NCBI GenBank assembly: GCA_963820825.1
Contig: CAWGBN010000008.1
Coordinates: forward strand, 352,001 to 416,000
Direction of reading: 5' to 3'
Length of the DNA stretch: 64,000 nucleotides
Origin: Vulcanimicrobiota bacterium
GTDB lineage: Bacteria; Vulcanimicrobiota; Vulcanimicrobiia; Vulcanimicrobiales; Vulcanimicrobiaceae
The translations under genes were made by a program, and so were the position numbers. Below the pieces are notes generated by a model. The model saw only the letters and a list, made by a program, of their open reading frames with translations, made no database searches and had not been told where the DNA came from. Of this stretch, positions 15,255 through 41,611 are shown piece after piece. The first letter of the stretch is position 1, and every line of letters starts with the position of its first letter.

Positions 15255-16651
15255 TGCTGGTCACCGCCGTCACCAGCGAATCTTTCCCTTTCGTGGCCGT
15301 CAGTATCGCCATGCGCGCGTAATCGATCACCTCGGGCAGGCGGCGCGCGTAGCCGCTGATGAACCGCCACGAGAAGAGGCGCTTCGGCGAGAGATACTCG
15401 GCCTCGTAGAGCAGGAGCAGGTTCGCTAGGACGAAGTGGCGCATCGCGCTGCCGCGGTTGATGTGGACGCGCCAGCGCTTGGAGATGTCCACGTTGGTGA
15501 AGACGTCGTTACGCAACGAGCCGGAGAGCACCGAGGGGCTCACCGAGATGACGCTGTCGTATCGCTGCGGCATGCGCTCGCTGCGCTCGATCTTTCCCTT
15601 CCCAAAGTCGACGCACCAGTACTCTTGCTGGCGTGTGTCGATGGTGAAGACCCAGCGCGTATTGCGGATGAGCGGGCGCAACAGGCGAGTCGCGCGGAAG
15701 AACTTATCGAAGTACTTGGCAAAGTCGTCGAAGGCGATTTCCTTCGCCGCTTCGGAGCGATAGGTTTTCTCGAGACGCTCGCTCTCGGCTTGCGCGCGCT
15801 GCTCCGAATACGCCACGATGTCTTCGACGACGTTGTCGGTCAGCTCGAAATCCCGACGCCGCCGACCAGCGGCTTCCGACCGGCATGATCACCAGCGACG
15901 TCTCCGGCGCGCGCGAGGCGTTTGCGTTGAAGTAGTCGCGCATCTCCGGCGCCGAGACGAGGAAACGGTTCTCGTCGATTACCTCGCGATGCAGGTGGCA
16001 GATGCCGCTCGCGAACGGAATCGCGTAACGCGGGCGAAGCTGTTGCGCCGCGGCCGCGAAGGCTTCCATATACGTGCGGGCGTCGACGGGAAGCCGGTCG
16101 CCCGGATCTTCGAAGGTGTAGCGCGTCGGATACGACCACGCCGGCGAGTGGCTGCGCAGCATGAAATCCGGCTTGGGATACTTCGCACGGAAGGCGCGCC
16201 AGGTCGAAGGCAGCGGCTTTGCATCGTTGAGATCCATTAGCACCGTTCCGCCCGATTCGACGACCGCGACGCTGTCGTCTTGAAAGCTGATCTGATAGCT
16301 GGTGAGATAGAAATCGTCGCCGAGCTTGATGCGCTCGCCGTGGCGCAGTTCGACGATGCGCTCGAATCCGATCTGCTCGAGTTGCTGCCGCAATCCCGAG
16401 ATCGGAAACTTGGGAACGATCGCGGTCGTCGTCTTCGCGAACTTCTTGAGCGTCTTGGGATCGAAGTGGTCGAAGTGCCAATGCGTGATGTAGACGTAGT
16501 CCGCGCCGAAAATATCCTCGCCGAAGATCGGCGGCGGGCAATGCCACCACGACGACCAATAGGTCGGTTCGTTCAGCCAGGGATCGATGACCAGCCGCTT
16601 GCCGCTTGCTTTCACATCGATGCAGGCGTGGCTGACGATACGGAACTCCAT
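15241..16651 (-). CDS. MBL-fold metallo-hydrolase, frameshift near 15850
   Basis: HACI...IDPW, THWHFDH (HxHxDH) motif; C-terminal part in ORF 15241..15816. Confidence 0.75.
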
Positions 16652-16726
16652 GAAACCCCGTTCTTCGCTCTTCGTCCGTTCGCCCTTCACCCTTCGTCCT
16701 TCGTCCTTGATGACGCAGGTTAAATA

Positions 16727-18127: not shown

Positions 18128-18132
18128 GAGCC

Positions 18133-19530
18133 TCACTCGCTGTCGACGGGTAGATACGAGGGCCGCTGCGCCTCGAAGTAGGCGGGGGAATACTTCGCCT
18201 TGATCGGGGTGAAAGCGCGCGGCGCTTGGGTGAAGTCGAAACAATCGCCGATGCTCGTCGCGCGCTGATCGGTCGTGCCGAGACTGCCTAGCCCCCAGAC
18301 CGCTTCGACGAACTTCAGAATGCTGCCGAACTCGTACTGCGTGTGCGAGATGTAGCCGGGCGTGCTCGGATAGGCTTCGCGCGCGTAGGGCGAGACGACG
18401 AGCATCGGCACGCGAAAGCCGAGGCCGCCCCATTGATCGAAGAACGGCGGCGGTTCGTGATCGAAGAAGCCGCCCCAATCATCCCACACGACGATCACCG
18501 CGCTCGTGCTCCAGTAGTCGCTCTTGCCGACCGCGTTGACGATGCTCGCCACCCACGACGGGCCCGTGTCGGAACCGTTGCCGGGATGGTCGGAGTTCGG
18601 ATTGTCCGGCACGACCCACGAGAGCGCGGGAAGCCGCCCTTTCTTGACGTCGAGAAAGAAGCTTTTCGCCGAAGCGATGTTGGTGCGCCACTCGCGGCGC
18701 TCGCGCACCGCCTTGATCGCATCGAACGCGTTCCAAAATCCGCCCGTTCCGTCCGGCTCGGGCGGCGAGTAGGTCTTCCACGTAACGCCCTTGGCGTCGA
18801 GCAGATCGCGCAGCGTCCGATAGGTGAGGCAGGGAAACGGACCCTGATGGCGCTTGTAGGCGAGTCGCGATCCGCGTACTTCCAAGAGCGAGGTCTTCGT
18901 GTCGCGGCGCGCGTCGCATCCCCACGGCACGTGCGACGGAAAGTCGACGAGAGTCTTTGTTCGGCCCGGATTGATGAAGGTGGCGCCGGCGATGAGATCC
19001 TGATGCGCGGTGAAGCTCCCGCTCCCTTGCGTCTGGAACATGTGATCGGCGAGCACGTACGTTTTCGCGATCTCCCAGTAGGGCGCGATCTGCGACGGAT
19101 CGACGTACTGATAGGTCTCGAGTCCGGCCGGTCCCGGACACGGCTTTCCGCCGCCCTCGAGATTGAAGCCGTCCATCTTGCCGTTATCGTACTCTTTGAG
19201 AAAACCCGCGCGCGAATGGCCGAAATCGCACTTCTCGTTGAGCGGCGCCGAATGCAGGTAGACGTAGGTGTAGCCGCTCGGCGTCTTTATTCGTCCCCGC
19301 GTCGTGCCGTCGGCTTTTGGAAACGTCGCGAAGAGATTATCGAAGGTGCGGTTCTCTTGAACGACGATGATGACGTGCTGCAAGACGTCGGACCCGCCGC
19401 TCGATGCGGGCGGGATGGCGTTGCTTCCCGCACTCGTCGCGTTACGCACCGGACCGGCGCACGAAACGCCGGCCACCAGAGCGATCGAACCGATAAGGGC
19501 GCGCGCGAGCGCGCGCCGGCGACTCGTCAC
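18133..19530 (-). CDS. Phosphoesterase/phospholipase C-family lipoprotein (copy 10)
   Basis: QENRTFDN, SFTAHQ, WDDWGG, GFRVP. Confidence 0.88.
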   Translation of the reverse strand: MTSRRRALARALIGSIALVAGVSCAGPVRNATSAGSNAIPPASSGGSDVLQHVIIVVQENRTFDNLFATFPKADGTTRGRIKTPSGYTYVYLHSAPLNEKCDFGHSRAGFLKEYDNGKMDGFNLEGGGKPCPGPAGLETYQYVDPSQIAPYWEIAKTYVLADHMFQTQGSGSFTAHQDLIAGATFINPGRTKTLVDFPSHVPWGCDARRDTKTSLLEVRGSRLAYKRHQGPFPCLTYRTLRDLLDAKGVTWKTYSPPEPDGTGGFWNAFDAIKAVRERREWRTNIASAKSFFLDVKKGRLPALSWVVPDNPNSDHPGNGSDTGPSWVASIVNAVGKSDYWSTSAVIVVWDDWGGFFDHEPPPFFDQWGGLGFRVPMLVVSPYAREAYPSTPGYISHTQYEFGSILKFVEAVWGLGSLGTTDQRATSIGDCFDFTQAPRAFTPIKAKYSPAYFEAQRPSYLPVDSE

Positions 19531-20234
19531 CGCTGCCGCAAGTCGATGGCGCCCGTCGTGGTCTCGAGCCGAATCCGCCCGCCGCCGTTTCCGATCGTAC
19601 CGCCGCCACGCGCGCCGACGAGGTGTTCGCGCTCCTGCGTCACGCCGGGAACGTTGCTGGCAAAATCGCCGACCGTGCTAAATGCCTGCACCGCCGCGTT
19701 GCTCCCGGGCGCGATCGTCAGCGTGACCGCGCCGGTCGTCGCGCGCAGGGCGATCGATCGATTTGCGTTGACGCTGCCCGCGTCGGCGGTAATCTCGCCG
19801 GCCTGGGTCTCCACGTCGAGATTTCCGCGCACGCCGGCAAGGTCGATGGCGCCGGCATCGTTGGTGATGCGCAGCGAGGCGCCCTCGGGCACGGAGATCT
19901 TATAGCGGACCCCGCCGCCGTGCACGCCGCCTGAGTACCGTGTTTTGACCGAGACCCCGTCGATCTCGCGGCGGACGTCGATCGTTACGCCGCGCAGTTC
20001 CTCGGGGTCGTGGCCGTATTTCGTTGCCTGGACGTCCACGATCGGCTTCGGCCAGCCCTCGACCCGGACGGCGCCGGCGACGTTCTCGATTTCGACCGCG
20101 GGCGAGGCACCGGCGGCGATGCTCTGGTGCACCTGCTCCCGAACCCGCTCTCCGAGGTTTCCACTGCACCCGCCGAGCGCCGGGAGGATGCAAAAGGCGG
20201 TCGCGATTCCTCGAGCGAAGGCCTTGAGGGCCAT
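19527..20234 (-). CDS. DUF4097-like beta-strand-repeat lipoprotein
   Basis: LGGC lipobox; repeated xxTxxGxIxL units (NVAGAV, NDAGAI, TTTGAI). Confidence 0.7.
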   Translation of the reverse strand: MALKAFARGIATAFCILPALGGCSGNLGERVREQVHQSIAAGASPAVEIENVAGAVRVEGWPKPIVDVQATKYGHDPEELRGVTIDVRREIDGVSVKTRYSGGVHGGGVRYKISVPEGASLRITNDAGAIDLAGVRGNLDVETQAGEITADAGSVNANRSIALRATTGAVTLTIAPGSNAAVQAFSTVGDFASNVPGVTQEREHLVGARGGGTIGNGGGRIRLETTTGAIDLRQR

Positions 20235-22760: not shown

Positions 22761-22840
22761 ATGCTAAGCCGTGTGCGGGCACTCCGTTGACGACGTCGTC
22801 GCGAACCAATGCCTGATGGACACGATGGGCTTCGCCGAGG

Positions 22841-22871
22841 GATAATACATAAGGGCCTTCAAACGTCCGGT
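22841..22871. repeat. 31-bp direct repeat R1
   Basis: GATAATACATAAGGGCCTTCAAACGTCCGGT. Confidence 0.95.
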
Positions 22872-22890: not shown

Positions 22891-23887
22891 TCACGCCTCC
22901 GAGGATTGCTCGCTCTCGCCTGACTGATCGACCCGCAGGATGGCCTCCGCGATCTCCGCGTCTAGTCCGGGCTCGCTGGCTTTGCGAAGCTCAATAAGCC
23001 GGTCAGCCGCCCAAGTGGCCACTTTATCAATCTGGCTCGCAAGGGACGCTCGCTCGACGTTTTGAATGACGCGGATCGCCTGTCGGCGCCTGCCTTCTTG
23101 GAAGTCCCATGCGATGACACCGTTGACCCCTTCCTGGATCGAGTTCGAGCGCGCTCTAAGCAGTTCAAAAAGCCGCGCGTTAACGCCCGAGTCGGCGTGA
23201 TACAAAAAGACGTCCGAGCGTAGCTGATTCCGTCCAAAATTGACTGAGTACGCTATCGCTCCTTGGTGGGTTCGCTCCAGTACGTAGTCGGTATAGCGAC
23301 TCAAGGGCTCCAGCAATCGAGCGAATGCGCCACTGGCAACGGCGATCTCATGGATGCTGTCAAAAACCGCATTGAGTTGCTCTTGATCGGGCGCAACTTC
23401 GGTGCTCCTGGCTATCTGCGAAGTGCTTTTTTGCCACTGGTTCGGCAAGACCACAGTTCGGAAGTTGACCGCCGGCTTGGAGTCGTCGCAGCACTTCGAC
23501 TTGGATTCCAAAGAAATGCCTTGTGGCGATCGTGTTTACGTTAAGCCAGTCCAACGCCGCGCGATGCTCCTCCCGAAAAGTTGGGCTAATCCAGACGATG
23601 TGCCTTGCGTCTAATCCGGATGCATACGTCAGGATTTGGCCGAGGTGACGATGGTCGGTCGGTTCGATCTGGTTCTCGATGATGACTAGATCGTCCGTGC
23701 CAACGACGCGTGCGAGGATGTCTAATGAGAACGAGCCGACTTCGGCCTCACGTTTTAACAACTCTAGTTCGAGGCCTAGCATATCGCCGAGACGGTCAAG
23801 ATTGTCGGCAACCCACTTCGAGAAATGCACAGGTTCCGTAGGGAAGGTCTCACGAGGATTCAAGAAACGAAGCGTCCCGAGATCCAT
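22891..23887 (-). CDS. DUF4268-associated PD-(D/E)xK nuclease-like protein, frameshift near 23495
   Basis: FSKWVADNLDRLG, VGSFSLDILA, IIENQ..TDHRHLGQILTYASG; continues in ORF 22891..23511. Confidence 0.75.
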
Positions 23888-23951: not shown

Positions 23952-23982
23952 GATATTACATAAGGGCCTTCAAACGTCCGGT
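23952..23982. repeat. 31-bp direct repeat R2
   Basis: GATATTACATAAGGGCCTTCAAACGTCCGGT. Confidence 0.95.
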
Positions 23983-24021: not shown

Positions 24022-25044
24022 CTATAAAGCCAAGGTAATTACAACGGCAGAAATTCTTATGAGCGCGCGCTTCGTGAAGGAGTGAATCGTGTTGATGGGA
24101 GCCACGTTACCATTGGAGCCGGCGGCATAAACGTTTATTCCGGCTGCGCGCCCGTTTGCTTCGTAGATGTTGTCGGAGCTGTCCAGAGCGATGCCAATTG
24201 GACGTCGCATCGTTGTCAGGTGTCCATGGATCTTGCGGATGGGTGCTTCGTTGCCATCGGCTCCCGCGGGGTACACCGTAGAGATAGGCTGGATTGGAGT
24301 TAAAGTCTGCCACGTATATGTTCCCGCTGGAATCGAACGCGAGCTCCGTAGGATGAACCAATTTCGTACGGCTGCCAGCGATCGTTCGCATGGGCGTAAC
24401 GTTAGCCGTGCTGCCAGCGGCGTAGACGGTGATAGACGCCCCCGGCGTTTGCAACGTAAATGTTTCCACTTGTGTCCAGCGTGATCCCAGCCGGGAAAGA
24501 CAGTCCGGTACTTGGGCCGCTGATTACTCCGAGGGGAGCGACGTTTCCACTTGCGCTCGCTGCGTAGATCGTGATGCTGTTGTTTTCCAGAGTTTGCAAC
24601 GTAGAACTCTTCATTGTATTGGTCGAAGGCAATGCCGAAAGGGCTGTTCAATCCCGTTGCTGGGCCTCTTATCTTCTGTATTGGCGCGACATTCCCCATC
24701 GCGCCAGCGGCGTAGACGGTAACGGAGTCCCCACCGCCCTGGTTTGTAACATACAGGTTGCCGCTTCCATCTTCCGCGACGTCCCTCGGCGCAGCAAGCC
24801 TGGTGTTTGAGCCGCTTATCTCTCGTATCTGCGCCCAGTTGCCGCTGGTGCCTTCGCGCCCAAAGACCGCCAACGTCCTGCTCCATAAGGTATATAGGCA
24901 GGGGCACGAACTCGTGCTCCGTTTGATAGTTCCTGATTGGTTTTGCTGAGCGGCGTTCGCGCTTGAAAAGAGGGTATTTCCCCCGCAGCTTGTAAGTAAC
25001 AAAATCGCCATCGATGGGGCAACGATGTACGTTGCGGTTGACAT
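24022..25044 (-). CDS. NHL-repeat lipoprotein with internal frameshifts
   Basis: LTSC lipobox; repeated D..GNIYVAN...ITVYAAG..GNVAP units spread over three frames. Confidence 0.75.
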   Translation of the reverse strand: MSTATYIVAPSMAILLLTSCGGNTLFSSANAAQQNQSGTIKRSTSSCPCLYTLWSRTLAVFGREGTSGNWAQIREISGSNTRLAAPRDVAEDGSGNLYVTNQGGGDSVTVYAAGAMGNVAPIQKIRGPATGLNSPFGIAFDQYNEEFYVANSGKQQHHDLRSERKWKRRSPRSNQRPKYRTVFPGWDHAGHKWKHLRCKRRGRLSPSTPLAARLTLRPCERSLAAVRNWFILRSSRSIPAGTYTWQTLTPIQPISTVYPAGADGNEAPIRKIHGHLTTMRRPIGIALDSSDNIYEANGRAAGINVYAAGSNGNVAPINTIHSFTKRALIRISAVVITLAL

Positions 25045-25167
25045 GCGCACAATCACGCTCCTTTTTCTGCAACTTGCAATGCGCGGCAAGGTCCTAAGCT
25101 ACTTATCTAATGATCCCTGCCGCCCTCCTGGTGAATCAAAGGACAAGGCGGTCGGACCGCGGTTGCC

Positions 25168-25198
25168 GATACTACATAAGGGCCTTCAAACGTCCTGT
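25168..25198. repeat. 31-bp direct repeat R3
   Basis: GATACTACATAAGGGCCTTCAAACGTCCTGT. Confidence 0.95.
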
Positions 25199-25210: not shown

Positions 25211-27208
25211 TCATCCGTTGCTTACTGCATGCGTCATCGCTGGCACCCATGCAAACGAGAAGAGGTCGCGCATCCCATCTGCATCGATTCCGTTCGGTCC
25301 CACCCCGAACGCGTCGAAGAGTCTGCCGTACTTGCGGGTAAGCGCATAAACCAGGTTTACGTTCTCCTCAATCTGCTGCTCCGGCAGTTCCGGGTATTCG
25401 TCCGTCCGATTGCGGTGCGCCACATATTGGTTGGTGATGGTTACCAGCGCACGGCAAGCCTTCTTGAGCGCCTTTATGTCAGCCGCAATCTTCTCCGAGC
25501 TCATGTGAGTACCTGAGGCATCGGCAATGGCGGCAAAAGCTGCGGCGGCTTCGCCTTCGTATCGCTCTTGCCATTCGCGCCGAACCGACAGCGCTCTGGT
25601 CTTGAGCGTCTCGACGCACTTCTCAAGGCCGTAGGCCGTCGGATTGAGTTTTAGCTCTGTTAGGAAGTTTAGGAGGGAGACGCTGCGAACATCTGAGTCG
25701 ATCTGGCGGCGTACAGCCACCATGACGGATTCGACGACGGCTCTAGCGATGAACAAGAACATGTAGATGCTCGCAGGATGCTCGACGACGCGCGCATTCG
25801 ACATGCCAGCCGCGTGAATGACCTTGAAGTGTTGCCATACCGTCCAAGCATTGTTGATTTCAATGCCGATGGTTTCGATGTCAGCCTTCCATCTCGCGAT
25901 AAGGGCTTCGTCTGTGGGGATGCGACGGCGTTCCCATGGCTTGATCGCAACGAGTGTGCGGCGGAAGAACTCAAGGAAGCGCTCCAGGTCTGCGTGTGGA
26001 TCGGGATTGTAGAATGTGCCCGAGCCATCTTCGTGTTGCACTAAGACGACGTGCTTCATCGGTGAGCCGAGCAGAGCGAGCTTCGCCTTGTAACGAGCCA
26101 TAGCGATGACGTAATCACGCATCTCGCCTGTGAAGTAGTCCGCATCAGTGAAGTAGCCGAGCTCGACGGCTTTCGCGTCGATCTCTTCGTCGCTAAAATC
26201 GTTATCGTCGGCGTAGACTACCTGCTGGGTCAACAGCTCACGGTGAACCGAAGTGTGCCGCATATCGCGCAATAGCCCATAACTATCCCAGAACGCGTCC
26301 TCTTTGAACAGCGCATAAACCTCCGGTGCGCTCTGCTTGATAGCGCGTTGAAACGATGACTTGAGAGCGCCTATTTGAGAATCTGGAGTTGGCAAGTTGT
26401 ATGCTCTTACGATCAACGTCGCGGTTTGATCGAACGCGGTGTAAAGATTCACGTAGAACTGATTTAGATAGGCAGTGTATTCGAAACGGAAATCCTGACG
26501 CTCGAACCCTGCTCGGTGCGCCCAGCGATCCTGCTGACGGTAGAATGCCATCCGGTCGCGACTAAAGCAGAGCGTCTGGAGAGTCAGTACGAGCAGGCGC
26601 ATCGCTTCCGCGGTTTCCGACGACACCTTCTTCGACTGCTCCCACTCGTGGAGAATGTCCGTGAAAATGCTGTGCTCGCTCATTGCGTAGAACTGCATCC
26701 ATGGTTGAAACTTCGCCGCCCCTTCGAACGACCACGGAGCGTTAAAACCCTTGGCATGCAATTCCGCTTGTCGCAGAACTCCGGCTATCGTGCTCGTCAC
26801 CAGCGCCGAATCGTCGGTGATGGCTGGATGCAGCTGCTTTTCGTCGCCCGACAGAACAACGTCGCAGTCGTAGCGTCTCGCGATTCGTGCAACCTCGTCG
26901 GCGTCGGACTCATCGAAAGCCGCAATCTTACTAAACTCGACGGTGAGCGATTCGAGCGTGGCAATCGCAGTAGCCGCCTGCGCGGGAACGAACAACGTGA
27001 CCTTCAGATCATCGAAGCCGAGGTCCGCGAAATACCAGTTCAGCAGTTGGATGCGCGCGAGCCGTTCGCTGTTTGCGGCGTCCAGGGTCTGGTCGGCGAC
27101 GAGCACGTCCAATCCCCTCTTCCAGAGACCCGTGCTCGTTATCGTAGCCGTGCCGTAATCGTAGAGGAACCGTAGGGCGAGATTCCGTGGAATCATTTGA
27201 ACCACCAT
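25211..27208 (-). CDS. Multidomain protein with two putative HEPN-like domains (possible defence gene)
   Basis: Intact 665-aa ORF; RHTSVH (R-x4-H) in a helical domain; C-terminal AbiU2-like region (VRRQIDSD..SVSL..FL, NQYVAH). Confidence 0.5.
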   Translation of the reverse strand: MVVQMIPRNLALRFLYDYGTATITSTGLWKRGLDVLVADQTLDAANSERLARIQLLNWYFADLGFDDLKVTLFVPAQAATAIATLESLTVEFSKIAAFDESDADEVARIARRYDCDVVLSGDEKQLHPAITDDSALVTSTIAGVLRQAELHAKGFNAPWSFEGAAKFQPWMQFYAMSEHSIFTDILHEWEQSKKVSSETAEAMRLLVLTLQTLCFSRDRMAFYRQQDRWAHRAGFERQDFRFEYTAYLNQFYVNLYTAFDQTATLIVRAYNLPTPDSQIGALKSSFQRAIKQSAPEVYALFKEDAFWDSYGLLRDMRHTSVHRELLTQQVVYADDNDFSDEEIDAKAVELGYFTDADYFTGEMRDYVIAMARYKAKLALLGSPMKHVVLVQHEDGSGTFYNPDPHADLERFLEFFRRTLVAIKPWERRRIPTDEALIARWKADIETIGIEINNAWTVWQHFKVIHAAGMSNARVVEHPASIYMFLFIARAVVESVMVAVRRQIDSDVRSVSLLNFLTELKLNPTAYGLEKCVETLKTRALSVRREWQERYEGEAAAAFAAIADASGTHMSSEKIAADIKALKKACRALVTITNQYVAHRNRTDEYPELPEQQIEENVNLVYALTRKYGRLFDAFGVGPNGIDADGMRDLFSFAWVPAMTHAVSNG

Positions 27209-27278: not shown

Positions 27279-28625
27279 TCAAGGCCTCTGGTTTCGTTCA
27301 GGGCTGTTGCTTGCGCGGCCGGTGACTCGGCGCCGGTTATTCTCGGCGAGCACGGCGCCTCGTTTCTTCGCCGCCTCGCCTCCGTGCCCGGGATTAAGAC
27401 CGGCCGCACGCATCTCAGCAAGCCGCGCCTGCGCCTTCTCGATCGGCTTCGCTACCTCGACGCTATAGCGCAGATAGCAATGGCGCCCGCAGAACTTCAG
27501 TCCTTTCCGCGGTAGCGGCTCCTTGCAGTAGCCGCAGGTGGACTCGATCCCACGCCGCGCGCCGCTGCTCGATCGGCTTCGGCGCTTCGCGAACCAGCCG
27601 CCGCGGCACGGCGATCCGGCGCAACTGCTTGGCGTAGTCGTTCGCGAGCTCCAGCGCCGCCTTGCGGAAACGGGGCATCAGCGCCGAGGCGAGGAGTCCC
27701 GTCAGATCGGGATCGAGCCGTACAACCCCATCGCGCAGCTCATGGAACATCGCCGGGTGCAGCTTCTCTTTGTGGAGCAGCTCCAGCGCCCACACGTCGG
27801 CCTTCGCTCGCAGCGGTTCGAGCAGATCGTAGATGAACGATTCGCGCAGCCGATCGTCGGTGTGGAGCAGCCCAAGGTCGGGGTCGAGCCCGACCGCCTC
27901 GCAGGCGATCCGCGTCTCCACTTCGAGCAGCGTATAGCAGTAGTTCAGGATCGCGTTGAACGGATCGGTCGCATCGCGTACCCGTTCGCGTCTCCCGTTT
28001 GTCCGCGGACGAGATCGCCGCCCAGTGCGCCGGTATCCGCTTGAGTGCCCACGGTCGCCACGGCAGCGGCGTCTCGACTAGGAGATTCCAGTAGACTTGT
28101 GCGGCACGTCCCTCCAGCGCGAGGAAGTCCACAAGCGTCGTCGTTTCCATCAGCGACGCTTTGCATGCGTGGATTTCCGAGGTTGCCGTGGACTTCCCGG
28201 AGACGTTCACGATTCCGAGTCTCGGAAAGTCTCGTTCGATCGCGGAAATCTGCGAGTCCAGTTTCTTTTCCAAGGAGGTACCGCGCCAAGTTCACCGCGT
28301 CGTCCGTCACCGCGGAGACCGCCTGTGCCCGCTTCACCGGTCCGTCGTGCGGCGCGTCGGGAACCATGCAGTTCAGCAAGGTACTGTCGGACGCCACGAA
28401 CGAGACGGCGATCCCCATGCGGGCACACCAGTCGATCGCCTCCATCGAGACGGTCCCGCCCGGCGCGCGAATGACGATCCGTTCGATCGAGCACCGTCCG
28501 CGCGGGAAGCGGATTTCCCGGGTCTTTCCTTCGCTTGCGAAACCGTCGCGCGTGACGAGGTGGCCTCGCTCGACAAATAGTTGCGCGTTGTAGCCTTCGA
28601 TGGTGAGAACGCGATCATTGTGCAT
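27279..28625 (-). CDS. cas1: Solo Cas1 (casposase-like) with C-terminal Zn-finger extension; about 3 frameshifts
   Basis: Joined frames give LALEGRAAQVYW, DATDPFNAILNYCYTLLE, GLDPDLGLLHTD...SFIYDLLEPLR (catalytic E/H/D-E), then CGYC..FCGRHC..GHGGEAAKKRG; TGA at 27279-27281. No cas2 or other cas genes. Confidence 0.9.
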
Positions 28626-29616
28626 GGTCTACTCCAATGACTTTTGGAACGAGTTTGTAGGTTGTTGCAAACGAGTCGATTGCGGTATCGATCCCCTGTG
28701 TGTCACCAGCGAGGTAAGCCGCCATATTCGCTATGCCCCTCTCGTCGTGACTGACGTCGAATGCACCAGCATAGGCGAGGCTGCGAAGCGCAGCATCCGT
28801 CGCCTCGAACTCCGATGCATCTTCGACGATCGGGTAGCTGGGCACCGGACGAATCGGCACGCGCACGCCGGCCGCTTCCAAACGCCCAATGAGCAGCGCC
28901 TGCATCTGCATCGTCTGAACCGCAGCGCGAACCTCCGGCTCGGGGGCATCTCCACTCGTAACGATCTGAAAATGGCTGTGCCGGCCCTGACGAAGCCAAG
29001 GCGTGATTTGGTCTAGTAGAAGCATTGCTTTGGGTGCAAACTCGATCGCTGCGCTCTCATCAACGCGCATCATTGTAAGTAATCGAATAACGTCGCGCTC
29101 GAAGAAAGCGCCCTCGTTGTAGGCTACGGGAAGCAGCATGCGGGCGGCATGCTCGGTAAGGTCTCGCGCTAGTTGGTAGGCGGGGTCAGCTTTGATCTTT
29201 CGCTTCGGCACGAACTCATTCGCCAGCTGTCGCGCAAGATGCGGGATGCGCCGCGGATGAAAGCCGATGCCGCTCCAGCTGTTCGCGCGATGGAGCTCCC
29301 GATCGACCTTCGCCAACGCCGCGGAAATTCGATCGCGGGCGCCGCGATGCACCCGGTCCCATGGAATGGTGTGGTAGTTGCGATAGGCCAGTTCGAGACA
29401 GAGGCCATCATGATCGCGGGCAAGCTGCATAGTGCCCTCGATCGACAATATGTATCGCAGATCGATCAGCGCGGCATCGGAGATCCGGTATTGGCGTCCG
29501 CAGCGCGTCGAGCGTACGCCAAAAATGCGTAGCCGGTGCAACTTGTCCGACCCGATCCTAAAGCCCTCAGCCCGCAGCTGGTCGAGGGCCTCGCTCAAAA
29601 GCGGTCCGTCAACCAC
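28615..29616 (-). CDS. Hypothetical protein with possible N-terminal HTH; overlaps cas1 start
   Basis: Intact 333-aa ORF with an 11-nt overlap with the cas1 start. Confidence 0.65.
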   Translation of the reverse strand: MVDGPLLSEALDQLRAEGFRIGSDKLHRLRIFGVRSTRCGRQYRISDAALIDLRYILSIEGTMQLARDHDGLCLELAYRNYHTIPWDRVHRGARDRISAALAKVDRELHRANSWSGIGFHPRRIPHLARQLANEFVPKRKIKADPAYQLARDLTEHAARMLLPVAYNEGAFFERDVIRLLTMMRVDESAAIEFAPKAMLLLDQITPWLRQGRHSHFQIVTSGDAPEPEVRAAVQTMQMQALLIGRLEAAGVRVPIRPVPSYPIVEDASEFEATDAALRSLAYAGAFDVSHDERGIANMAAYLAGDTQGIDTAIDSFATTYKLVPKVIGVDHAQ

Positions 29617-29716
29617 CTAGAGGGTATTCGGCGCGGCAGCTTTTGGCTCCGCGTGAAGTTGTCAGTTCCGCGCCTTTTCTGGCGGCGTAGCAGGCGTCAG
29701 AAAGGAGGCCTGAGTC

Positions 29717-30214
29717 ATGGCCAAATCACGGGTGTTCCTGGGCATCGACCAACTGTTCTACCACCAGGACGCGTATCGACGCGCCCTCGATGCGATCGGC
29801 TTCAAGCGCCGACATCCCAAAATGTCGTTCACGAAAGCTGCGAAGCTGAGCGGCACCACGATCAAGACGGTTCGCAAGTACGCCGGATCGGCAATGGAGG
29901 TCCGATCCGGACGGATCGACGTAACGCGAACAGATGCGCTCAAGCGCCGGATGCGCATGCTCACGCCCCAGGGTGAGATCGCGGTCCCGACGACGAGCTC
30001 GCAGACTGCCTCGCGGATCAGCCGGTACAACAACGCGGTGCGCGAGTTTTACGCCACCGGCAAGACGGCGGCGCTCAAGCCATTCGTTGGTAAGTCAGTG
30101 CGTTCGGGTGGAAAGCGGTACGAGTTCGTCACGAATCCCGCCACGCTCAACCGGCTTGGCCGCGCTGGCAGCGTACACTTCTCGGAGATCTATGCTCCTG
30201 AGTCCGAATCATGA
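29717..30214 (+). CDS. Basic hypothetical protein with HTH-like segment
   Basis: AAAGGAGG Shine-Dalgarno; SFTKAAKLSGTTIKTVRKY; ATGA overlap with the next gene. Confidence 0.7.
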   Translation: MAKSRVFLGIDQLFYHQDAYRRALDAIGFKRRHPKMSFTKAAKLSGTTIKTVRKYAGSAMEVRSGRIDVTRTDALKRRMRMLTPQGEIAVPTTSSQTASRISRYNNAVREFYATGKTAALKPFVGKSVRSGGKRYEFVTNPATLNRLGRAGSVHFSEIYAPESES

Positions 30215-30853
30215 GGCCCGTCTATCAGGAGCCAAACGACGGCAACGACACCAAGAAGCTGCTGCGCTTGGGCACCGATCGGCCGCGCTGTGCGAGCTGC
30301 CGGACCGACGACTTCCGGCAGCTCTGCTCCGTGCACGACGCTCGGGGCCGCAGACGGATCTTATGCCGGAACTGCCGCGCCAAGCACAAGCGCCTCTCAG
30401 CAGCAGCTGCAGCACGCAAACGGCGGCAGTTTGCAGCTGACGGCTACGAGCAGCCTGCATGCGTGGTGTGCGGGGAGCCAGCGCTGCAGCTGCTTGAGCG
30501 CGATCACCTCACGGGAGCTGCCAATAGCGGTAGCACGGAGCCTTTGTGCGCTAATCATCACGCGATCAAGTCGTACATGGCCGAGCACGGGCTGATGGCA
30601 GCTCTGCGGCTGCGTGATCCGGAGCGATCGGCCTTGCTTTTGCAGGCAGCATTCGAGTTCGGCCTTGGTGCGATGCTCGGGATGTTCGCAGTTGGGACGG
30701 CGCGCACGGAGAGACGGCACGCTGCATCTTCTTGGGTCGCCTCCGTGCTGCTCTTTGCATGGGCTGCGTGGAACGTTTCGGCGGACTGCGTACTTCGAGG
30801 GTGTACTGGGACCGGGCTACGATCGCGCGATCGGGGCGGCGGTGCCGCGATGA
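30211..30853 (+). CDS. Zn-finger/HNH endonuclease-like protein with hydrophobic C-terminus; frameshifted
   Basis: CASC..CRNC, CVVCG..ERDH..LCANHH; likely end in frame 30614..30853; ATGA overlap with polB. Confidence 0.65.
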
Positions 30854-33800
30854 TCCGGCGCGAGGCTCCGCGGGCGCGAAGGCGTCCCAACGGGCTCCGA
30901 AGGGCGCGGCCGCAAGCCTCAGCACCGTCCGAACTCGTCGCAATGGCGGCTCAGCCCCCTATCAGCAGGCGCAGGACGGGCATTCTCGCCGTCGATACGG
31001 CGATTCGGGCGTGGGTCGAACCGCACAAGGCGCACAGCGCGTCAACGGTAAGCCGAAGACCGTTGCGTGGCGTCCGCAGCCCTACGGCGATCGCGTTCTG
31101 GTCTTCGACACGGAAACCACGACCGACGCGGCGCAGCGGCTCCTCTTCGGGTTCTTTCGCCTCTACGAGCGTCGATCGGCTGATCGAGGAAGGCCTCATC
31201 GTCACCGACCTGCTCGATTACGAGCAGATGATGACGCTCGACCGAATACGCGGCGACAATGCCACTTGCCGATCTACAGCCGCGAGCGCTTCGTGGAAGA
31301 AGTGTTCTACCCGGAGGTTTACGAGCGACGGCACCCTCTGCGTGGGCTTCAACCTGCCGTTCGATCTCACGCGGATCGCCGTTCACGCGGGAATCGGCCG
31401 TGGCGAAAATCGCCGCAAGTTCCGCCTGGTCACTTTCGAGGCGCATTCGCTGGCACGATTTACGCATTGAATCCGCCTCGGGCCGTGCAGCCTTTATCGG
31501 GTTCATCCCCAAGCGCAAGCTCTTCGCGTGGGAGAAGCCGTTCTTCGCCGGGCGCTTCTGCGATCTCAGCACGCGTCGCAGTGCGTTCACCGGCAAGCGT
31601 CATACGCTCAAAAGCGCGGGCAATGCATTTACGGACCTAGCACGCGCAAGATGACGTGCGCCGGAGCTCGGCGTGATCGACCGGCGCTCCTGCTCTACGG
31701 GCGGCAGGACGTCCGTGCAACCTGGGCACTGTACAAGGCGCTACGTGCAGTGAGTACGAGCGACACCCCTTCGCTACGTTCGCGAACGAGCGCAGCAAAC
31801 CCAAGCACGGGCACGTTACATGGGGCGAGCTGTATTCCAGCGCGAGCATTGCCAAGCAATATCTGCGCCTGCTCGGGATTACGCCGCTGCTACATAAGCG
31901 CCCGGCACTTCTCGCGCAAGCTCTGGGCAACGCGATCGCCGCGTACTTCGGCGGCCGGGCCGACGTGCGCGTACGCAAGACGGACGTGCCGGTGCGCGTG
32001 CTCGACTTTACGGCGAAGTACGCGACGCATCTTTTGCCTTCAGCGGCTCGACAAGACTGCTCGTCGCCCCGTCGATCGGGATCAAGCTCGTCACCCCCTG
32101 GGTGAAGGGCCTCCTCACCCTTTCAGAAGCCCGCAATGGGCCTGCTGTACGACTCCAAGACCTGGCCGAAGTTCAACTGCCTGGTGCTGGTCGACCCGAA
32201 CTGGGCGATCCTACCGGTCCGCTTCCGCACAAGGACAGCGATCCGTACACGATCGCCGTTACGCCGCTGCAGACGCGGGAAGGGCGCTGGTACACATTGG
32301 CGCGATGTAATCGCGGCGCGTTCTGCTGGGTGGGCCGCCACCGCAAGTCCGTCAGTGCGATCCGCTTCGTTCCGAAGGGCCGCCATCAGGCACGAGACCA
32401 CATCGCTTTCGCGGAGAGGTTGAGCTGCGATCGAAGCGCAGCCGTTCTTCACAGACGATCGTGGAGCAGCGCCAGATCGCCAAGCGCGGAGCAAAGGACG
32501 ATCCGGATCTCGCGGCGCTTGAAAGGGGCCTAAAGCAGATGGCGGCCAGCGGTGCGTACGGCATCTATGCCGAGGTCAACGTCACGCCCCGCAGCCGCGA
32601 CGACCGACGTGCCGGGCGAGGCGTATTCGGACATCATGCTATCCGACGGCCGAAGGTCCACGACGAACGGCCCGGCGCTTTGCGAATCCGATTATTGCAA
32701 GCCTCGTCACCGGCGGCGCACGGCTGATGCTCGCCATGCTCGAACGCGAGGTGACGCGCCGCGAGGCGGCACGTTTGCCTTCTGCGACACCGACAGCTCT
32801 CGCGATACCTCGCGGAGACGAACTGCCCCGATGGGATCCCCTGCGTGCCGGAAGCGACCATCGGGGAGATCGTTGCTGCGTTCGATGCGCTCAACCCGTA
32901 CGATCCAGCCACGGTGCCGCACTTGCTCAAGGTCGAGTATCCGGGCATTTCCGATCTGCGGTGCTTCGCTGTTTCCGCGAAACGGTACGTCCTCTATCGG
33001 TGGCGACCCGGGCGCCGCATTGAGATCGTGAAAGCCTCGGAGAGTGCGCTGGGTGCGATTATCGGACGACCCGCAACGAATCGACCGCAAAGCTGGCGCG
33101 TCGGGTGTGGCTGTCGATCCTGATAAAACACCTTGACGTTAACCCGCAGCAGCGGCGCCGGGCCAAGCCGCTGATCGATTTCGACGTTCCCTTGCGCCGG
33201 AAGTTTCCGATTAGCCAGCCAGCGATCTTTGCAACGAATGAAAGCCTACAACAAGGGGCGGACATACGACCATCGGTCAAGCCGTTCGGCTTCGTGCAGA
33301 CCGTAATCCCGCCCGTGAAGATCGGAGCGAAGGAGTCCCCTACCGATTGCGCCGTTTGAACTCGATCTTGCAAAATCCAAGCGCTCGCGTGGGTCGACTT
33401 TAACACCGGCGAGCCGATGCGCCTAGATTGGCACGAAAGCCACATGGCGGGCACCATCCCCGTCATGCGGCTGAGCGACGTACATCGAGCGATATCACGA
33501 ACCACCCCGAAGCCAAGGCCGCCGATCGGATCGGCAATCCCGCAGGGCCGGAAACGACTGGGCCTTCTCCAGCGACTGCAAGCTGCGGTCAGAGAGGCTT
33601 GCGCGAATCGGTAAGGAAGTCGATCGGCTCGATGAGGACGAGGGTGCTTCGCTTGAGGCCGGTCAGCCCACCGAATACGAGCGCGACGACCTGGCGGAGG
33701 ACATAGCGTGGTTAGCGACGTTCCCGCGCGAACAGGTAGCCAACGACATCGGCATATCAGAACGGAGGTGGCGCGATATCATAGAGCATCGATCCAACCC

Positions 33801-33876
33801 ACGTCGCGGAACCGCTGCTCAAATCAATCGCGTTGCGGAAGAGTATGGGCATCAGTTTAATATCGGGCAGAATTAG
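30850..33876 (+). CDS. polB: Family B DNA polymerase with C-terminal HTH-like tail; many frameshifts
   Basis: In order across frames: ExoI VLVFDTETT, ExoII GFNLPFD, ExoIII YGRQDV, AYFGGR, motif A LDFTAKY, motif B LKQMAASGAYG, motif C FCDTDS, SAKRY, IGKE; TAG at 33874-33876. Confidence 0.85.
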
Positions 33877-33912: not shown

Positions 33913-36004
33913 CTAGGGCGGCGTTGACTTACCCGGCTCGATCTCCGTAAGGATTCGGTCGGCGTGATAGACTTGCCGTAATCCAGCCAGTATCGTGCGA
34001 CTGTCCACGAAAACCGCACGATTGGTAGCTCGCCTCGTACTCGTAGTCACCGCCGAGGCCAAAGATGTTCGTGTCGAAGAAGACACCGACGATATCGGCC
34101 TCCCGGTTCAGCACGGGGCTTCCGGAGTAGCCGCCGATCGTGTCGTTCGTCGTCACGAAATCCATCGGGGTGGAAAGGTCGAGCGACGACTTCGCCAGCA
34201 ACCAGCTCTGCGGAAGGGCAAACGGCGGGGCGCCGGTCGCACGATCGTACAGGCCCGCGATCGTCGTGTACGGCTCGACGAAGCGTCCTTGGGCGTCGGT
34301 AAATCCCTTAACCGCGCCGTAGGAGAGACGTAAGGTGCCCGTCGCATCGGGATCGATACTGATACCGTAGACGGCAAATCGAGCTTGCGCGATCCGCTCG
34401 GCGGCGGTCCGGCTCGGAGCACGGAACTCAGCGTCGAATTGCTTACGATCGGCTCGCACTTGCGGATCGATTGAAACGGCGAGGCGAATCATCGGGTCCG
34501 TCGACGCAGCGATCGCCGCCGCGCCTCCTGCGTAGAGCGCCTGACGCATCTTCGGATCGGCTAGCTGCGTGCCGAGGACGAGCCGGTGTGCCAGCTCTTC
34601 GGGCGACTCATTGCCTAACAGCTTGCGAACGAAAGGATCGTCGGGGCCGACCTCGCGCCGCACGAGCGTAAACGCAAAAGCGAGCCGCAGTTCCTCGAAA
34701 TCGGCGTAGATCGGCGCGGGCGCTTCGAGCTGCTGCTGGACCTCTACCAACGCCTGATCGGTGAACTCCGGCAGGCGTTCGGCGTTTGGTTTTACGCGTT
34801 CAGACGCCGCCTGGACTAGAGTGACGGCATAGTCCAGGAGACCCGAATCGGCGAAGTTGCTGATGTTAACTATCGCAGCCGCGGCGCCGAACTGGTTGAT
34901 CTGTATTCGTTTGCGTTGGATCGCGGCCATTTCGTCCCAAGTCTGCCCGAACCGGCCGGCGAGCGACGGGTTCGCGGCGACGGCCGACCGAAGGCGCCGT
35001 TCCTCGGCTTCTTTGGCTGCAAACACTGCTGGAGTGAGGAGGGCTTCTTCGTATCCGAGTATGCCCTTATAGGAATTCTCGATTGAATTGAGCGTTGATT
35101 CGGCTTCGGCGGAACGTTGCGGGCTTTCGTCAGAAAAGCGTTCGAGTAGGCCGCGGTACTCGGCTAAGACGACGAGCGTATGAGGCCAGGCGTTGTCCCG
35201 ATAGTAACTCAGCTGTGAAACGGTTAGCTCACGACTCGTGGTTGCCGGGCTGCCGGGAACGAACGTGAGCTCGCCGGTCTTGGAGCCGTTCCGGCTCCAT
35301 CGGAAATAATCGGGAGTGCTCGCGCCCTTGCCGCCATCGTACGCGCGCAAGAAGCAGACGTCGTACTGATAACGTGGAAAGTTAAAATTGTCGGGGTCGC
35401 CACCAAAATACGAAATAGCCTCTTCGGGAGAAAAGGCGAGCCGCACGTCGGTAAATCGGTGGTACCGATAAAGATCGTAGACGCCGCCTTCGTACAGCGA
35501 GACGAGATCGCAACTGGTACTCGCGTCGTCCCCGCAGCTCTGCTCGAGCTTCGCGCGCGCAGCGTTTAATGCTGCATTTTGTGCTTCGCCCGTCTTGCCG
35601 CCCATGGCGGCTCGGATCTGGTCGGTTACGTCGCGAATCTGCACGAGTTGATCTAGCTCGAAGGTAGGGCAGCGCCGCTCGTCAACGGGCGTGCGCGCAA
35701 CGAAGCCGGTCTGGGCCAGATCTTGCTGCGGCGTCGATAGATCGTGGATGCAGTCGTCGATGCAGTGTCGTGCCGTCATGACGATCCCGTTCGGGGAAAC
35801 GAACGACGCCGAGCAGCCGGCCGGCATCAGCCGCAACGAGGCTAATCGGACGCGATCGAGCCACTGCGGCGACGGTGTAAAACCGTATGCCCGACCGACG
35901 CGATTCGCCGGGAAGTTATCGAAGGTCCACATGCCCTCGTCAGCGAGCGTGCGCTGAGGAATAAGAATGCTCAGTGCAAGGGCGATGAGAAGGATCCGTA
36001 CCAT
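33913..36004 (-). CDS. S46 family peptidase; frameshift near 34030
   Basis: Signal peptide, DEGMWT, GCSASFVS, TARHC, FGGDPDNFNFPR, PDAT.TLRLSYG, GGYSGSP; corrected end TNRAVFVD...STPP*. Confidence 0.9.
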
Positions 36005-39312: not shown

Positions 39313-39614
39313 CTCGCAGCTTCGGGATCATTCGATTGCCATGACGAGCGTGCCGCCGAGGTCGACGTTCTGCGCCTCGACGCCGAAGTTAATCCCCGGG
39401 CCTTGCAGACGCTCTCCAGCCAGACGCGCCTCGCAATTTGTGCAAAACATAACCGCCCAAAGCGGTCAACGACTATCTAGCTGGTAACCTGTACGAATAA
39501 GCAGCTACGCGCATCACCTCGATCGCTAGGCCTAACCGGGGGTCTTCTCCCAAGATTTTACGCCACGGATAACTAGAAAATGGCGGCGAACACCGACCGA
39601 CAGGAGGTTCGCCC

Positions 39615-39881
39615 GTGCGCAAGTCCCGCTACTCCGACGAGCAGATCGCCGCAGCCCTGCGCCAAGCCGAAGCCGGCACGCCGATCGTCGATATCACCCG
39701 CAAGTTGGGAATCTCCGAGGCAACGTTTTATGCCTGGCGCAAGCGTTTTGGCAGTTTGGGAACGCCGGAGATCCGCGAGTTGCGTCAGCTACGTGACGAA
39801 AACGCGCGCCTTAAGCGACTCGTTGCAGATCTGACGCTGGATCGTCAGGTCTTGCAGGACGTCGTTAAAAAAAAGTGGTGA
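39615..39881 (+). CDS. IS3 transposase OrfA
   Basis: HTH plus leucine-zipper pattern; AGGAGG Shine-Dalgarno. Confidence 0.85.
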   Translation: MRKSRYSDEQIAAALRQAEAGTPIVDITRKLGISEATFYAWRKRFGSLGTPEIRELRQLRDENARLKRLVADLTLDRQVLQDVVKKKW

Positions 39882-40530
39882 GGCAGGTGCGCCGCACAGT
39901 CATGCTGCCAAAGGTGCGCGAGGCCTGGCGCTTGAGCGAACGGCGGGCGTGTGTCGTACTCGACATCAATCGCAAGATGGTGCACTACTGCCCCGTCAAG
40001 CGCGACGATCCCATTCTGCGCGCTCGGATCAAGGAGATCGCTCACACGCGCATTCGCTACGGCTACGAACGGATCACGATCCTGTTGCGGCGTGAAGGCT
40101 GGCAGGTCAATCGCAAGCGCGTGCGGCGGATCTATCGCGAAGAAAACCTCGCAATCCGTACGAAAACACCCGAAACGCCGGCGCGCCGCAGTCGTGCGGA
40201 CAGAACGGGTCGTACCCAGCGCGCCAAATCAGAGCTGGGCCATGGACTTCATGCACGACGTGCTCGCTGACGGCACCAAGATTCGCCTTTTAACCATAGT
40301 CGATTCATTTACTCGCGAGAGCCTTGCCCTCGAGGTGGCCTCGGGGTTCAAATCGACCGACGTCGTCGAGGTACTTCGCCGCCTCGTTGCCGAGCGTGGA
40401 TCACCGCAACGGATCCACTGCGATAACGGCCCAGAGTTCGTATCTTTGCAGCTGGATCAGTGGGCCTACTGGAATCGGGTGAAGCTCGACTTCTCGCGGC
40501 CCGGGCGCCCGTCAGATAACGCTTTTTGCG
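39878..40530 (+). pseudogene. IS3 transposase OrfB, frameshifted and truncated
   Basis: DDE core motifs split between ORFs 39875 and 39951; ends just after the catalytic E. Confidence 0.8.
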
Positions 40531-41611
40531 AAGCCTTGCTTACCACGACGCCCTCTGGCGTACTAAAGCCCCTCAGCGTATTGGTGGGGTAACCGCCGGC
40601 CGGATAATGATAGAACGAAGCGGTGTTATTTTGTTGACCATTTTGGAGCGTCACAATCACTTTGCCGTCCTGAATCCAAAAGTCTACTGGATACGAGGCG
40701 TAAGAACCATAACCAGTGTTGAGAGGCGTCCTGGCCACGCCCGATGCGCCCGAGGGCGTGATCTTTAAGCCGTAAATTACCGCGGGTATGTTGTTGTCGT
40801 CTGCGACAGCGAAATATTGGCCCTTGCCGTACCATTGAACGCCGCTCGGGGCGAGGCAGCATCCCCCGCTAACTGACAGCTGCTTAACCACGTGGCTGCC
40901 TTTAGCAAGCTCGAATAATAGGAAGAGTCCCTCGTCACAGCCGCCGTTGTCATCGATGAGAAGATTGCCGCTATTGTCGTAGGCGAGCCAACGCGGAGCC
41001 CCCATGCACTCCTCTGTATAGTAGTGAATCGGCTTGCCCTGAGCTTTCTTATAGATCGCAATTCCCAGCGTCGCGGTGCCCTTCGCGATCCAACCGTTGG
41101 AGAGAGCCAGATTCCCTGTCGTCGGGTCTACGGCGCAATCCGCGGGGACGTAGTAGTTCGCTGAGTTTTCGCTCAGGGTCGCAATCGGCGTCGTGCCGCC
41201 GTGCGCGTACTCGATGACATATGGCGTGTTAGGGGGGGAATATGCCGCATCCTGATTCACGATCCAAACGTCGCCCTTCCCGTCGACGCACATGCCGGTG
41301 GGCGCATCCAGGGGCGAGCCCTGCAACTCTCCCTCCAAGTGCACCTTTGGAAATGAGTAAACATCAACCGTGCTGTTGCCACCATTGGAGATATACAGGA
41401 GGTCCTGCTTCTTGGCGTCGGGAGCCATCCAGGACCTCCCGTGACCGTCGACCCGCGCCGAACGAACCTTATAGTGTCGAATTGCCTGTGCGAGGCCGAT
41501 TCGCGTAACGGCTGAAGCGCCGGGCAACGTCGCGCCGCTGTTACAGCCGGAGAGAAGAATTATACTTGCTACAGTGCTTGCTGCGTACGGGGTGAGCATT
41601 CGCGCCTTCAA
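40466..41611 (-). CDS. NHL/SMP-30-like beta-propeller lipoprotein
   Basis: LSGC; SWMAPDAKKQDLLYIS; CAVDPTTGNLA; C-terminus reads into IS3 DNA. Confidence 0.8.
   Translation of the reverse strand: MKARMLTPYAASTVASIILLSGCNSGATLPGASAVTRIGLAQAIRHYKVRSARVDGHGRSWMAPDAKKQDLLYISNGGNSTVDVYSFPKVHLEGELQGSPLDAPTGMCVDGKGDVWIVNQDAAYSPPNTPYVIEYAHGGTTPIATLSENSANYYVPADCAVDPTTGNLALSNGWIAKGTATLGIAIYKKAQGKPIHYYTEECMGAPRWLAYDNSGNLLIDDNGGCDEGLFLLFELAKGSHVVKQLSVSGGCCLAPSGVQWYGKGQYFAVADDNNIPAVIYGLKITPSGASGVARTPLNTGYGSYASYPVDFWIQDGKVIVTLQNGQQNNTASFYHYPAGGYPTNTLRGFSTPEGVVVSKASQKALSDGRPGREKSSFTRFQ

Follow-up and report, generated by a model that had tools for sequence, protein, structure and literature searches.

Casposons, the proposed ancestors of CRISPR adaptation, have been described from few genomes. 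The 64,000-nucleotide stretch of DNA analyzed here (the window) raises the question of whether a broken cas1 gene and a broken polB gene within it belong to such an element and, if so, why shortened copies of a terminal repeat lie between the genes beside them. Our favored answer, to which we give a probability of about 0.6, is that we are looking at the target-side portion of a family-3-like casposon that inserts site specifically behind a short leader motif, with a 14-base duplication, and that the inner repeats are clipped older ends on which newer pieces were stacked.

Core genes of the element

[quoted passage not shown] The cas1 gene (27279 to 28625, minus strand) lies in four pieces, three of which match Pfam Cas_Cas1 (best E value, 2e-23), and its product, a putative casposase with a C-terminal Zn finger and without an HTH, has 6OPM as its best PDB match (E value, 2e-15), ahead of CRISPR Cas1. 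The cysteine tail described from the sequence is real, as an intact relative keeps both CxxC...C and the catalytic residues E171, H254, D266, and E269, which a residue check by alignment found invariant in 14 of 14 Cas1 proteins. The same alignment shows Cas1 of the near clade stopping after the Zn finger, with an extra HTH-like tail in the far clade only. From this homology, and from the junctions described below, integration would be catalyzed by Cas1.

The two marker genes had been called divergent and linked, with their separation in other genomes named as one point that would count against a casposon; of the 14 related loci that extend 7 kb or more upstream of cas1, 13 have the two genes linked and divergent. 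By a simple exact-repeat test, neither the 73 regions nor the genome's nine contigs contain a CRISPR-like array. Of 401 genomes of the phylum, 75 have Cas1 relatives, and one soil genus has matches in 50 of 79 genomes.

Two genes had been left as unknown. The conserved core gene at 29717 to 30214 (plus strand) can now be named as that of a 165-amino-acid HTH protein, with weak HTH Pfam matches only, while the intact 333-amino-acid protein (28615 to 29616, minus strand) shows in its model a winged-helix-like N-terminal part and an all-helical body. The latter occupies the slot of the family 2 wHTH-HEAT protein and diverges fast; Foldseek gave no match to the model, PDB included, and recognition by Atlas was below threshold. 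The HNH-type nuclease gene (30211 to 30854, plus strand), with Zn fingers, two hydrophobic C-terminal helices, and three indels, was correctly recognized, its HNH motif being kept in all 13 aligned relatives.

The family B polymerase gene (about 30851 to 33876, plus strand) is of the CDTDS type and ends in HTH-like helices. Its motifs stand in the right order, as predicted: ExoI to ExoIII, YFGGR, motifs A, B, and C (CDTDS), and KRY. The claim that motifs A and B are atypical holds for one of them. The motif A reading DFTAKY is probably an error, since a single base separates it from DFTAMY, which the closest intact copy has, and DFTSMY is found in most relatives; KQMAASGAYG in motif B is a real subclade variant, the motif B Asn being missing in 5 of 16 aligned PolB proteins and retained in 11. 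Searches for PolB relatives among plasmids, phages, and PDB sequences gave no match. CDTDS defines a PolB group that takes in a casposon enzyme (PMC7544198).

Terminal repeat, target gene, and state of the copy

Terminal inverted repeats had been reported as absent by eye. In fact, a 32-bp outer repeat with its terminal GG present lies at 22839 to 22870 (plus strand), well outside the segment first assigned to the element. It is preceded by a 14-bp target-site copy (22825 to 22838, plus strand) that carries codons M-G-F-A-x of a clostripain-like gene and is duplicated at both ends in complete relatives. Before this copy comes a target-gene remnant of about 50 bp (22774 to 22824, plus strand), reading V-V-A-N-Q-C-L-M-D-T and including a leader-like motif (22807 to 22817); the genome's own intact copy of the gene is at G000:C8:190133-191368.

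The relatives show how complete copies are placed. In 12 pairs of inward-facing ends, 11 or more of the 14 bases match, and the 14-bp duplication is perfect in 10 of these. Complete elements of 16 to 18 kb lie between the halves of the host gene in G177, G216, G083, and G176; insertion is into the middle of this conserved gene, in either orientation. At least four complete elements thus split the host gene, unlike the intergenic insertion reported for family 3. Look-alike sites are also used, and most of the other sites are such motifs outside the host gene. In a survey of 108 repeat sites from 64 regions, picked around repeat or cas1 matches, the leader-like motif is conserved upstream of 43 sites; as a point against our favored reading, the full N-terminal half of the host gene lies upstream in only 7 of those 43. 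Tandem arrays share a single target copy, and deleted derivatives without the full set of core genes occur. The repeat pattern was not found in viral contigs. The clostripain-like label comes from Atlas (0.95, with C11 in 10 of 10 matches) and from His/Cys motifs typical of that family; Pfam, NCBIfam, and PDB sequence searches with the host gene gave no match.

A check of the contig for terminal repeats and target-site duplications yielded one end with its 14-bp target copy. The far-side repeat was found neither in the window at low thresholds nor elsewhere on contig C8, so the window copy is incomplete, however its frameshifts are read. The S46 peptidase that lies immediately right of polB in the window had no counterpart among the matches listed (150 of 195) for 60 relatives.

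Both cas1 and polB are indeed split across frames. Compared with an intact relative, polB is frameshifted by 46 indels yet contains no in-frame stop, with substitutions of 118, 79, and 313 at the three codon positions, and the body of cas1 has three single-base insertions. Given the lack of stops, the third-position bias, and the whole host genes flanking the element, these frameshifts are likely consensus errors of assembly, as far as the sequence can tell. What counts against this reading is the uneven spread of the indels, with 46 in polB and none in the 333-amino-acid gene. The missing far end would also suit a dead, decaying copy. However, decay with 46 indels should have brought stops and a flat codon-position bias, neither of which was found, and we regard a dead copy as unlikely.

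Clipped inner repeats and their possible origin

Between the outer repeat and cas1, cargo genes on the minus strand alternate with inner repeats on the plus strand. A DUF4268/PDC-S11 candidate defense gene in two frames (22891 to 23887) is followed by inner repeat copy 1 (23952 to 23981, preceded by GCT), a fragmented NHL/beta-propeller gene (24022 to 25089), inner repeat copy 2 (25168 to 25197, preceded by GCC), and an intact gene for a HEPN protein of 665 amino acids (25211 to 27208; AbiU2 above the cutoff, Cthe2314 weak). Both inner copies begin at base 3.

The new part of this work is that inner ends lack exactly their first two bases. Of 43 leader-side sites, 40 retain the terminal GG, as do 16 of 19 tandem ones (56 of 62 together) but none of 22 inner sites, 21 of which have G at base 3; p values for these counts are overstated, given that regions were picked around matches and the genomes are kin. 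Leader-side ends (n = 43) outnumber the GG ends classed as "other" (n = 14). A reversed control gave no matches, and metagenome contigs have GG at 14 of 14 leader sites and 0 of 3 inner sites. RCY stands before 14 of the 25 inner junctions, compared with a background of 7%. The junctions do not look like old target sites, as only 1 of 25 scored above the 95th background percentile and, with shifted profiles, one of 24 tests got to a z of 3.1. Neither Eremiobacterota casposons nor clipped inner ends turned up in the literature searched, though articles behind a subscription or supplements may describe them.

Several inner copies can be traced to former ends. Those in the window, G124, and G158:C2 run on into sequence that follows true ends elsewhere, and inner copy 2 with the following 340 bp is 93% identical to a true end, with GG and target copy, in G091:C31. 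At G287:C1, the cassette consists of a repeat, a cargo gene, and the tail of a cas1 gene cut midgene, and at the cut point the next bases in intact cas1 genes are TG, TT, or CG, not GAT; this cassette is the severed end of another casposon. A cut core gene was seen in this one cassette only, a point against the favored reading.

These observations suggest piecemeal stacking at the target, with a 2-base 3′ overhang in vivo. We imagine that the casposase binds leader and target and joins 3′-CC ends, that PolB copies the free element, and that newcomers enter on the leader side, in which case the far end would be the oldest and would decay. A freed or nicked end, its top strand starting from base 3, would carry the 2-base 3′ overhang. 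Such a clipped end might then join a break in its newer neighbor, preferably after RCY and without microhomology, so that only the terminal piece and outermost gene of the newcomer are retained. The outcome would be a growing island with largely defense-type cargo, in which the clipped scars likely record intracellular cutting of casposon ends. One study found the bottom-strand activity of the Methanosarcina mazei casposase to be full when the 3′ overhang was 2 nt long and termed the in vivo origin of casposon ends a mystery (PMC6977970).

Retained pieces measure 50 to 106 bp in nine cases and otherwise 0.47 to 3.5 kb, the search having extended to 4 kb. Of the 17 longer ones, 13 have their longest ORF on the outward strand. 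Short pieces with outward ORFs are not what random deletion of a 15-kb neighbor without selection predicts, which counts against stacking as just described. Less probably, one could envision a gene-sized counterpart of CRISPR spacer acquisition, polarized by the leader, in which terminal pieces of one gene each are added in turn at the leader end by the casposase together with a PolB that is phi29-like and initiates at ends. Clipped repeats would separate the pieces, defense arrays would build up, and the base-3 scars would reflect the true end in vivo.

Also less likely than stacking is the idea that cassettes are gained while the free element replicates. Some protein-primed polymerases initiate at template base 3; here, PolB would start at that base, a short terminal piece would reprime at base 3 of another end, and panhandle copying would spread the addition. 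The pieces are short and their frequency falls with length, as this would have it; in G177, a 1.16-kb cassette occurs at each end (98% identical), each time outside an inner repeat, although the two inner repeats differ; and in G388, two ends are fused to each other with no target copy. PolB itself is ambiguous. Its model folds as a family B enzyme in structure searches and lacks an N-terminal domain; motif A is separated from motif B by about 170 residues and motif B from motif C by about 75, with inserts at the places expected of TPR1 and TPR2. That layout would fit protein priming, and the top five VIA matches are phi29 polymerase (Z score, 14.5; root mean square deviation [RMSD], 4.8; 493 of 571 residues aligned). 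However, RNA-primed enzymes score up to 13.7 (RMSD, mostly 6 to 8), leaving phi29 a margin of about one Z unit, and Foldseek disagrees, ranking archaeal and eukaryotic enzymes first. Moreover, no terminal-protein gene was identified, the 333-amino-acid protein has no Foldseek match, and long cassettes are not repeated deeper in their own element.

The nine pairs just 50 to 106 bp apart would also suit subterminal casposase-binding sites, later spread by gene insertions, at which GG would not be needed; Tn7 ends carry such sites. Against this, the inner copy is absent from most complete elements (G216, G083, G176, G147, and G122), and inner copies match former true ends. We take this explanation, like the dead copy with which it forms one alternative, to be improbable.

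Finally, the repeats might double as sites for a host Xer-like recombinase, with circular single-gene cassettes inserted integron fashion. Two arms with a variable middle, direct orientation, and mostly single, outward-facing cassette genes have that appearance, and one arm resembles XerD sites. We nevertheless dropped this reading, which seems very unlikely, as outer copies are paired in inverted orientation and flanked by 14-bp duplications. Moreover, borders fall at base 3 rather than midsite, one cassette ends within cas1, and 26 of 80 genomes, among them the near-complete G097 and G073, have no match. The repeats fit neither the single dif-like site per chromosome of Xer systems nor the attC structure of integron cassettes, with its crossover inside the site. 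With a crude pattern, no convincing dif site was found in the genome.

Relation to known casposons and pipolins

The claim of a distinct lineage stands, whereas most of the reasons first given for it do not, being published core traits of families 2 and 3 or the supposed absence of ends. PolB-HTH, HNH, the two HTH genes, and the gene order are already published and give no ground for distinctness; the Zn finger, HTH tail, and CDTDS-type PolB are likewise previously described traits. It is set apart by its midgene target, by how abundant it is, and by inner ends that are clipped. Intact copies are available in this lineage, its leader and target are defined, and over 20 junction scars predict a 2-base 3′ overhang. 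It also supplies a compact site-specific integrase and a polymerase with a testable priming mode, natural repeat-gene-repeat arrays growing at a leader, and an example of a casposon that, unlike those described, breaks its target gene.

The closest known element is of family 3, with which the element shares a bacterial host and the HNH, HTH, and PolB genes held in common with family 2, the PolB here having the CDTDS motif. AceAut-C1 of "Ca. Acetothermum autotrophicum" (PMC4046053) has a Cas1 with a C-terminal Zn finger and adjacent PolB-HTH, HNH, and HTH genes. Its duplication is 15 bp, compared to 14 bp here, and over its first 30 or so bases its repeat, of 602 rather than 32 bp, is similar to the one here (by eye, about 23 of 33, with two gaps). 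Described family 3 elements are intergenic (PMC4779613), whereas the present lineage splits a coding gene, and the HTH of Cas1 is lost in its near clade. For family 3, we found no description of clipped inner ends or of numerous deleted derivatives.

Family 2, from M. mazei and Aciduliprofundum boonei, has the same five-gene order, a 31-bp repeat starting GGGATA, a 14-bp duplication, a required upstream motif, tandem insertion, both orientations, solo ends, and a CDTDS-type PolB; the best PDB match of the Cas1 here, 6OPM, is a further likeness. It differs in its archaeal hosts, its Cas1-HTH without a Zn finger, and its targets, which are tRNA 3′ ends or intergenic sites with the gene left intact rather than broken (PMC4779613, PMC6977970, PMC10359463, and PMC7544198). 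Family 1, from Nitrosopumilus (PMC6563490), also inserts at a protein-coding gene and in tandem, with a PolB of the protein-primed type; unlike the present element, it uses a 3′-distal target that preserves the gene and has other core genes and a compact Cas1. Pipolins (PMC5695915) are likewise bacterial self-copying islands, have a PolB with TPR1 and TPR2 inserts, and are reported to carry defense cargo (PMC11551731). They are, however, integrated by tyrosine recombinases, with no Cas1 and no terminal inverted repeats.

Core genes and their relatives

The element in the window is a real casposon. A hidden casposon-like element with broken cas1 and polB had been called from the sequence; the core genes lie at the positions then given, three of the four cas1 pieces (27279-28625, minus strand) match Pfam Cas_Cas1, and the PolB motifs (30851-33876, plus strand) come in order, spread over many frames. 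Linkage of cas1 and polB in other genomes, on which the original prediction had staked its call, holds in 13 of the 14 loci with enough sequence, with the two genes divergent. The features it had considered odd are mostly already known; the casposon call itself stands.

Searching genome contigs with a single cas1 piece as query recovered 22 loci. Eighteen of the 20 close ones are labelled Eremiobacterota/Vulcanimicrobiota, Ca. Cybelea and Ca. Baltobacteraceae among them, and the other two are from a Gemmatimonadaceae and an Acidobacteriaceae. The closest (L006, in genome G083) has 83% identity across 6.58 kb, with all five genes whole. With its Cas1 as query, 75 of the 401 phylum genomes matched at E 1e-20 or better, a tally that takes in one unpublished genome; by rank, these are 50/79 in the genus and 71/296 others in the family. 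The matches fall into near and far clades, the far one at ~30-38% identity. A simple exact-repeat test showed no CRISPR-like array in 73 regions or on the nine contigs of the genome. The far-clade casposases (L072-L080, L090-L093), ~30% identical and carrying a Zn finger and an HTH-like tail, lie inside islands with the same bounding repeat and leader. On one contig (G337:C1), up to four casposon cores are stacked.

Against G083, the window polB carries 46 indels that shift the frame, most of them insertions of one base, and zero in-frame stops; the cas1 body has three insertions. Substitutions in polB by codon position (118/79/313) resemble those of an intact neighbour gene (35/20/89). Because polB lacks stops and shares this codon-position bias, consensus error would fit the frameshifts better than decay does, although the patchy distribution of the indels counts against it.

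Two other core genes deserve mention. The 333-aa protein (28615-29616) varies far more than Cas1: where Cas1 is 72-87% identical between elements, this protein mostly reaches only 11-34%; it is possibly a specificity or immunity factor. The HNH protein (30211-30854) has one or two strongly hydrophobic C-terminal helices in 12 of 13 relatives and is possibly membrane-anchored.

Terminal repeats, the split host gene and the neighbourhood

No terminal inverted repeats had been seen by eye, but a repeat present in three window copies (22841, 23952 and 25168) has counterparts in relatives in both orientations. Outer copies start GGGATA and adjoin a duplicated 14-base piece. Twelve inward repeat pairs, two of which have one end in common, match at 11 or more of the 14 duplicated bases, 10 of them perfectly. 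Within tandem arrays a single target copy is shared, and derivatives of 1.7-10 kb lack most core genes.

In G177, G216, G083 and G176, complete 16-18 kb elements, inserted in both orientations, have one half of a particular host gene on either side; this gene is predicted, by Atlas only, to be clostripain-like. In G337, G113 and G063 both halves surround core genes without clear repeats. The cut falls directly 3' of C-L-M-D-T codons, which themselves provide the leader-like motif. The gene is present in 43/43 genus genomes searched; in eight of these its best match has about half the score, and four of the eight were seen split by the element. A full N-half lies upstream at only 7/43 leader-side ends, the others having look-alike sites or short remnants. 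The window copy belongs to these others, with ~65 bp of target-like sequence, and the genome carries a whole copy of the gene at another place; no far end of the window copy was found. This absence would agree with a dead element; the frameshift pattern does not.

Cargo in the window comprises a PDC-S11 candidate, a HEPN protein and an NHL gene. The S46 peptidase gene directly after polB (33929-35992), with no DNA match among those listed for 60 relatives, may also be cargo. Eight of 18 hand-picked, nonrandom cargo proteins of relatives match PADLOC models at E 1e-5 (DruA-like, kinase, Sir2, HerA, RM IIG, RM III, DUF262-like protein and PDC-S59), and one further match is weak. Paralogous genes for secreted proteins, with a PIKHVVFIVQENRSF motif in common, stand in tandem at 1686-9824 and 13860-19905. 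An IS3-like element (39580-40592) has a nearly identical copy on another contig of the genome (C6), beside a second cas1 remnant. This decayed cas1-side end (G000:C6:620014-626322; L003:12024-18323), interrupted by IS3 and IS110-like elements, has a repeat and target copy, with another variant repeat close by; a solo repeat and its leader lie elsewhere on the contig (G000:C6:8772).

Clipped inner ends

A repeat profile that starts at base 3, the first base after the terminal GG, detected 108 sites, 26 of which had gone into building it, in 64 regions picked around cas1 or repeat matches; the reversed control gave zero. The GG was kept at 40/43 leader-side sites (two of the three exceptions being G177 inner copies mis-binned through a fuzzy motif), 16/19 tandem, 14/24 unclassed and 0/22 inner sites. 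Metagenome contigs, some of them the same as genome loci, have GG at 14/14 leader sites and 0/3 inner ones. Of 25 inner junctions listed by hand, 14 follow RCY, versus 7% expected. We considered the inner junctions as target sites and rejected this, the sequence there not being target-like.

Three inner copies continue into sequence found after true ends elsewhere; the window's second (25168) shares 93% identity across 371 bp with such an end, that of a 2.8-kb G091 derivative. One cassette contains the tail of a cas1 cut mid-gene, without microhomology. Because inner copies match true-end sequence and one cassette holds this tail, the cassettes appear to come from the ends of other elements and to have been joined to an older end at its base 3. 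The join may have followed tandem insertion and deletion, the route we prefer. The main rival is re-priming during replication: the cassettes are short, mostly hold whole genes facing outward (13/17), and in G177 two copies of a 1.16-kb gene cassette, 98% identical, sit one at each end (L011:979-2143 and 16062-17228), outside different inner repeats, so that the twins together form long terminal repeats. These three points favour either re-priming or strong selection.

By our inference, the natural 5' end lies at base 3. The M. mazei casposase in vitro requires a 3' overhang of at least 2 bases, and the same paper describes how these ends arise as unknown (PMC6977970). At one locus (L060, G388:C3 ~1919510), two terminal repeats are fused end to end with no target copy between, resembling a circle or concatemer junction.

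Comparison with known casposons

The M. mazei casposon has a 31-bp repeat and a 14-bp duplication. The best solved match of our Cas1 is 6OPM, which we take to be the M. mazei casposase structure; the casposase paper carries this code (PMC6977970). The window has the gene order of family 2, published as Cas1-HTH, wHTH-HEAT, HTH, HNH, PolB-HTH (PMC4046053); the same source enters AceAut-C1 as Cas1-Zf, and the AceAut terminal repeat begins, by eye, in a similar way to ours. We tentatively file the element as a family-3-like lineage. Motif C (CDTDS) places the predicted polymerase in the PolB_CDTDS group, described as related to the main and the protein-primed groups alike (PMC7544198). The PolB family is large, with 809 clusters (50% identity) reaching E 1e-30. 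The PolB model (pLDDT 80) lacks an N-terminal domain, and its motifs A, B and C are separated by long inserts; in VIA-align phi29 polymerase led the ranking with a margin of roughly one Z unit, and Foldseek did not rank it first.

In the literature searched, no paper reports casposons from this phylum. Two findings merit following: the target in mid-gene and the scars at base 3. Described casposons keep the target gene intact, and those described from bacteria insert between genes (PMC4779613), whereas the relatives here split a host gene, cutting it mid-gene.
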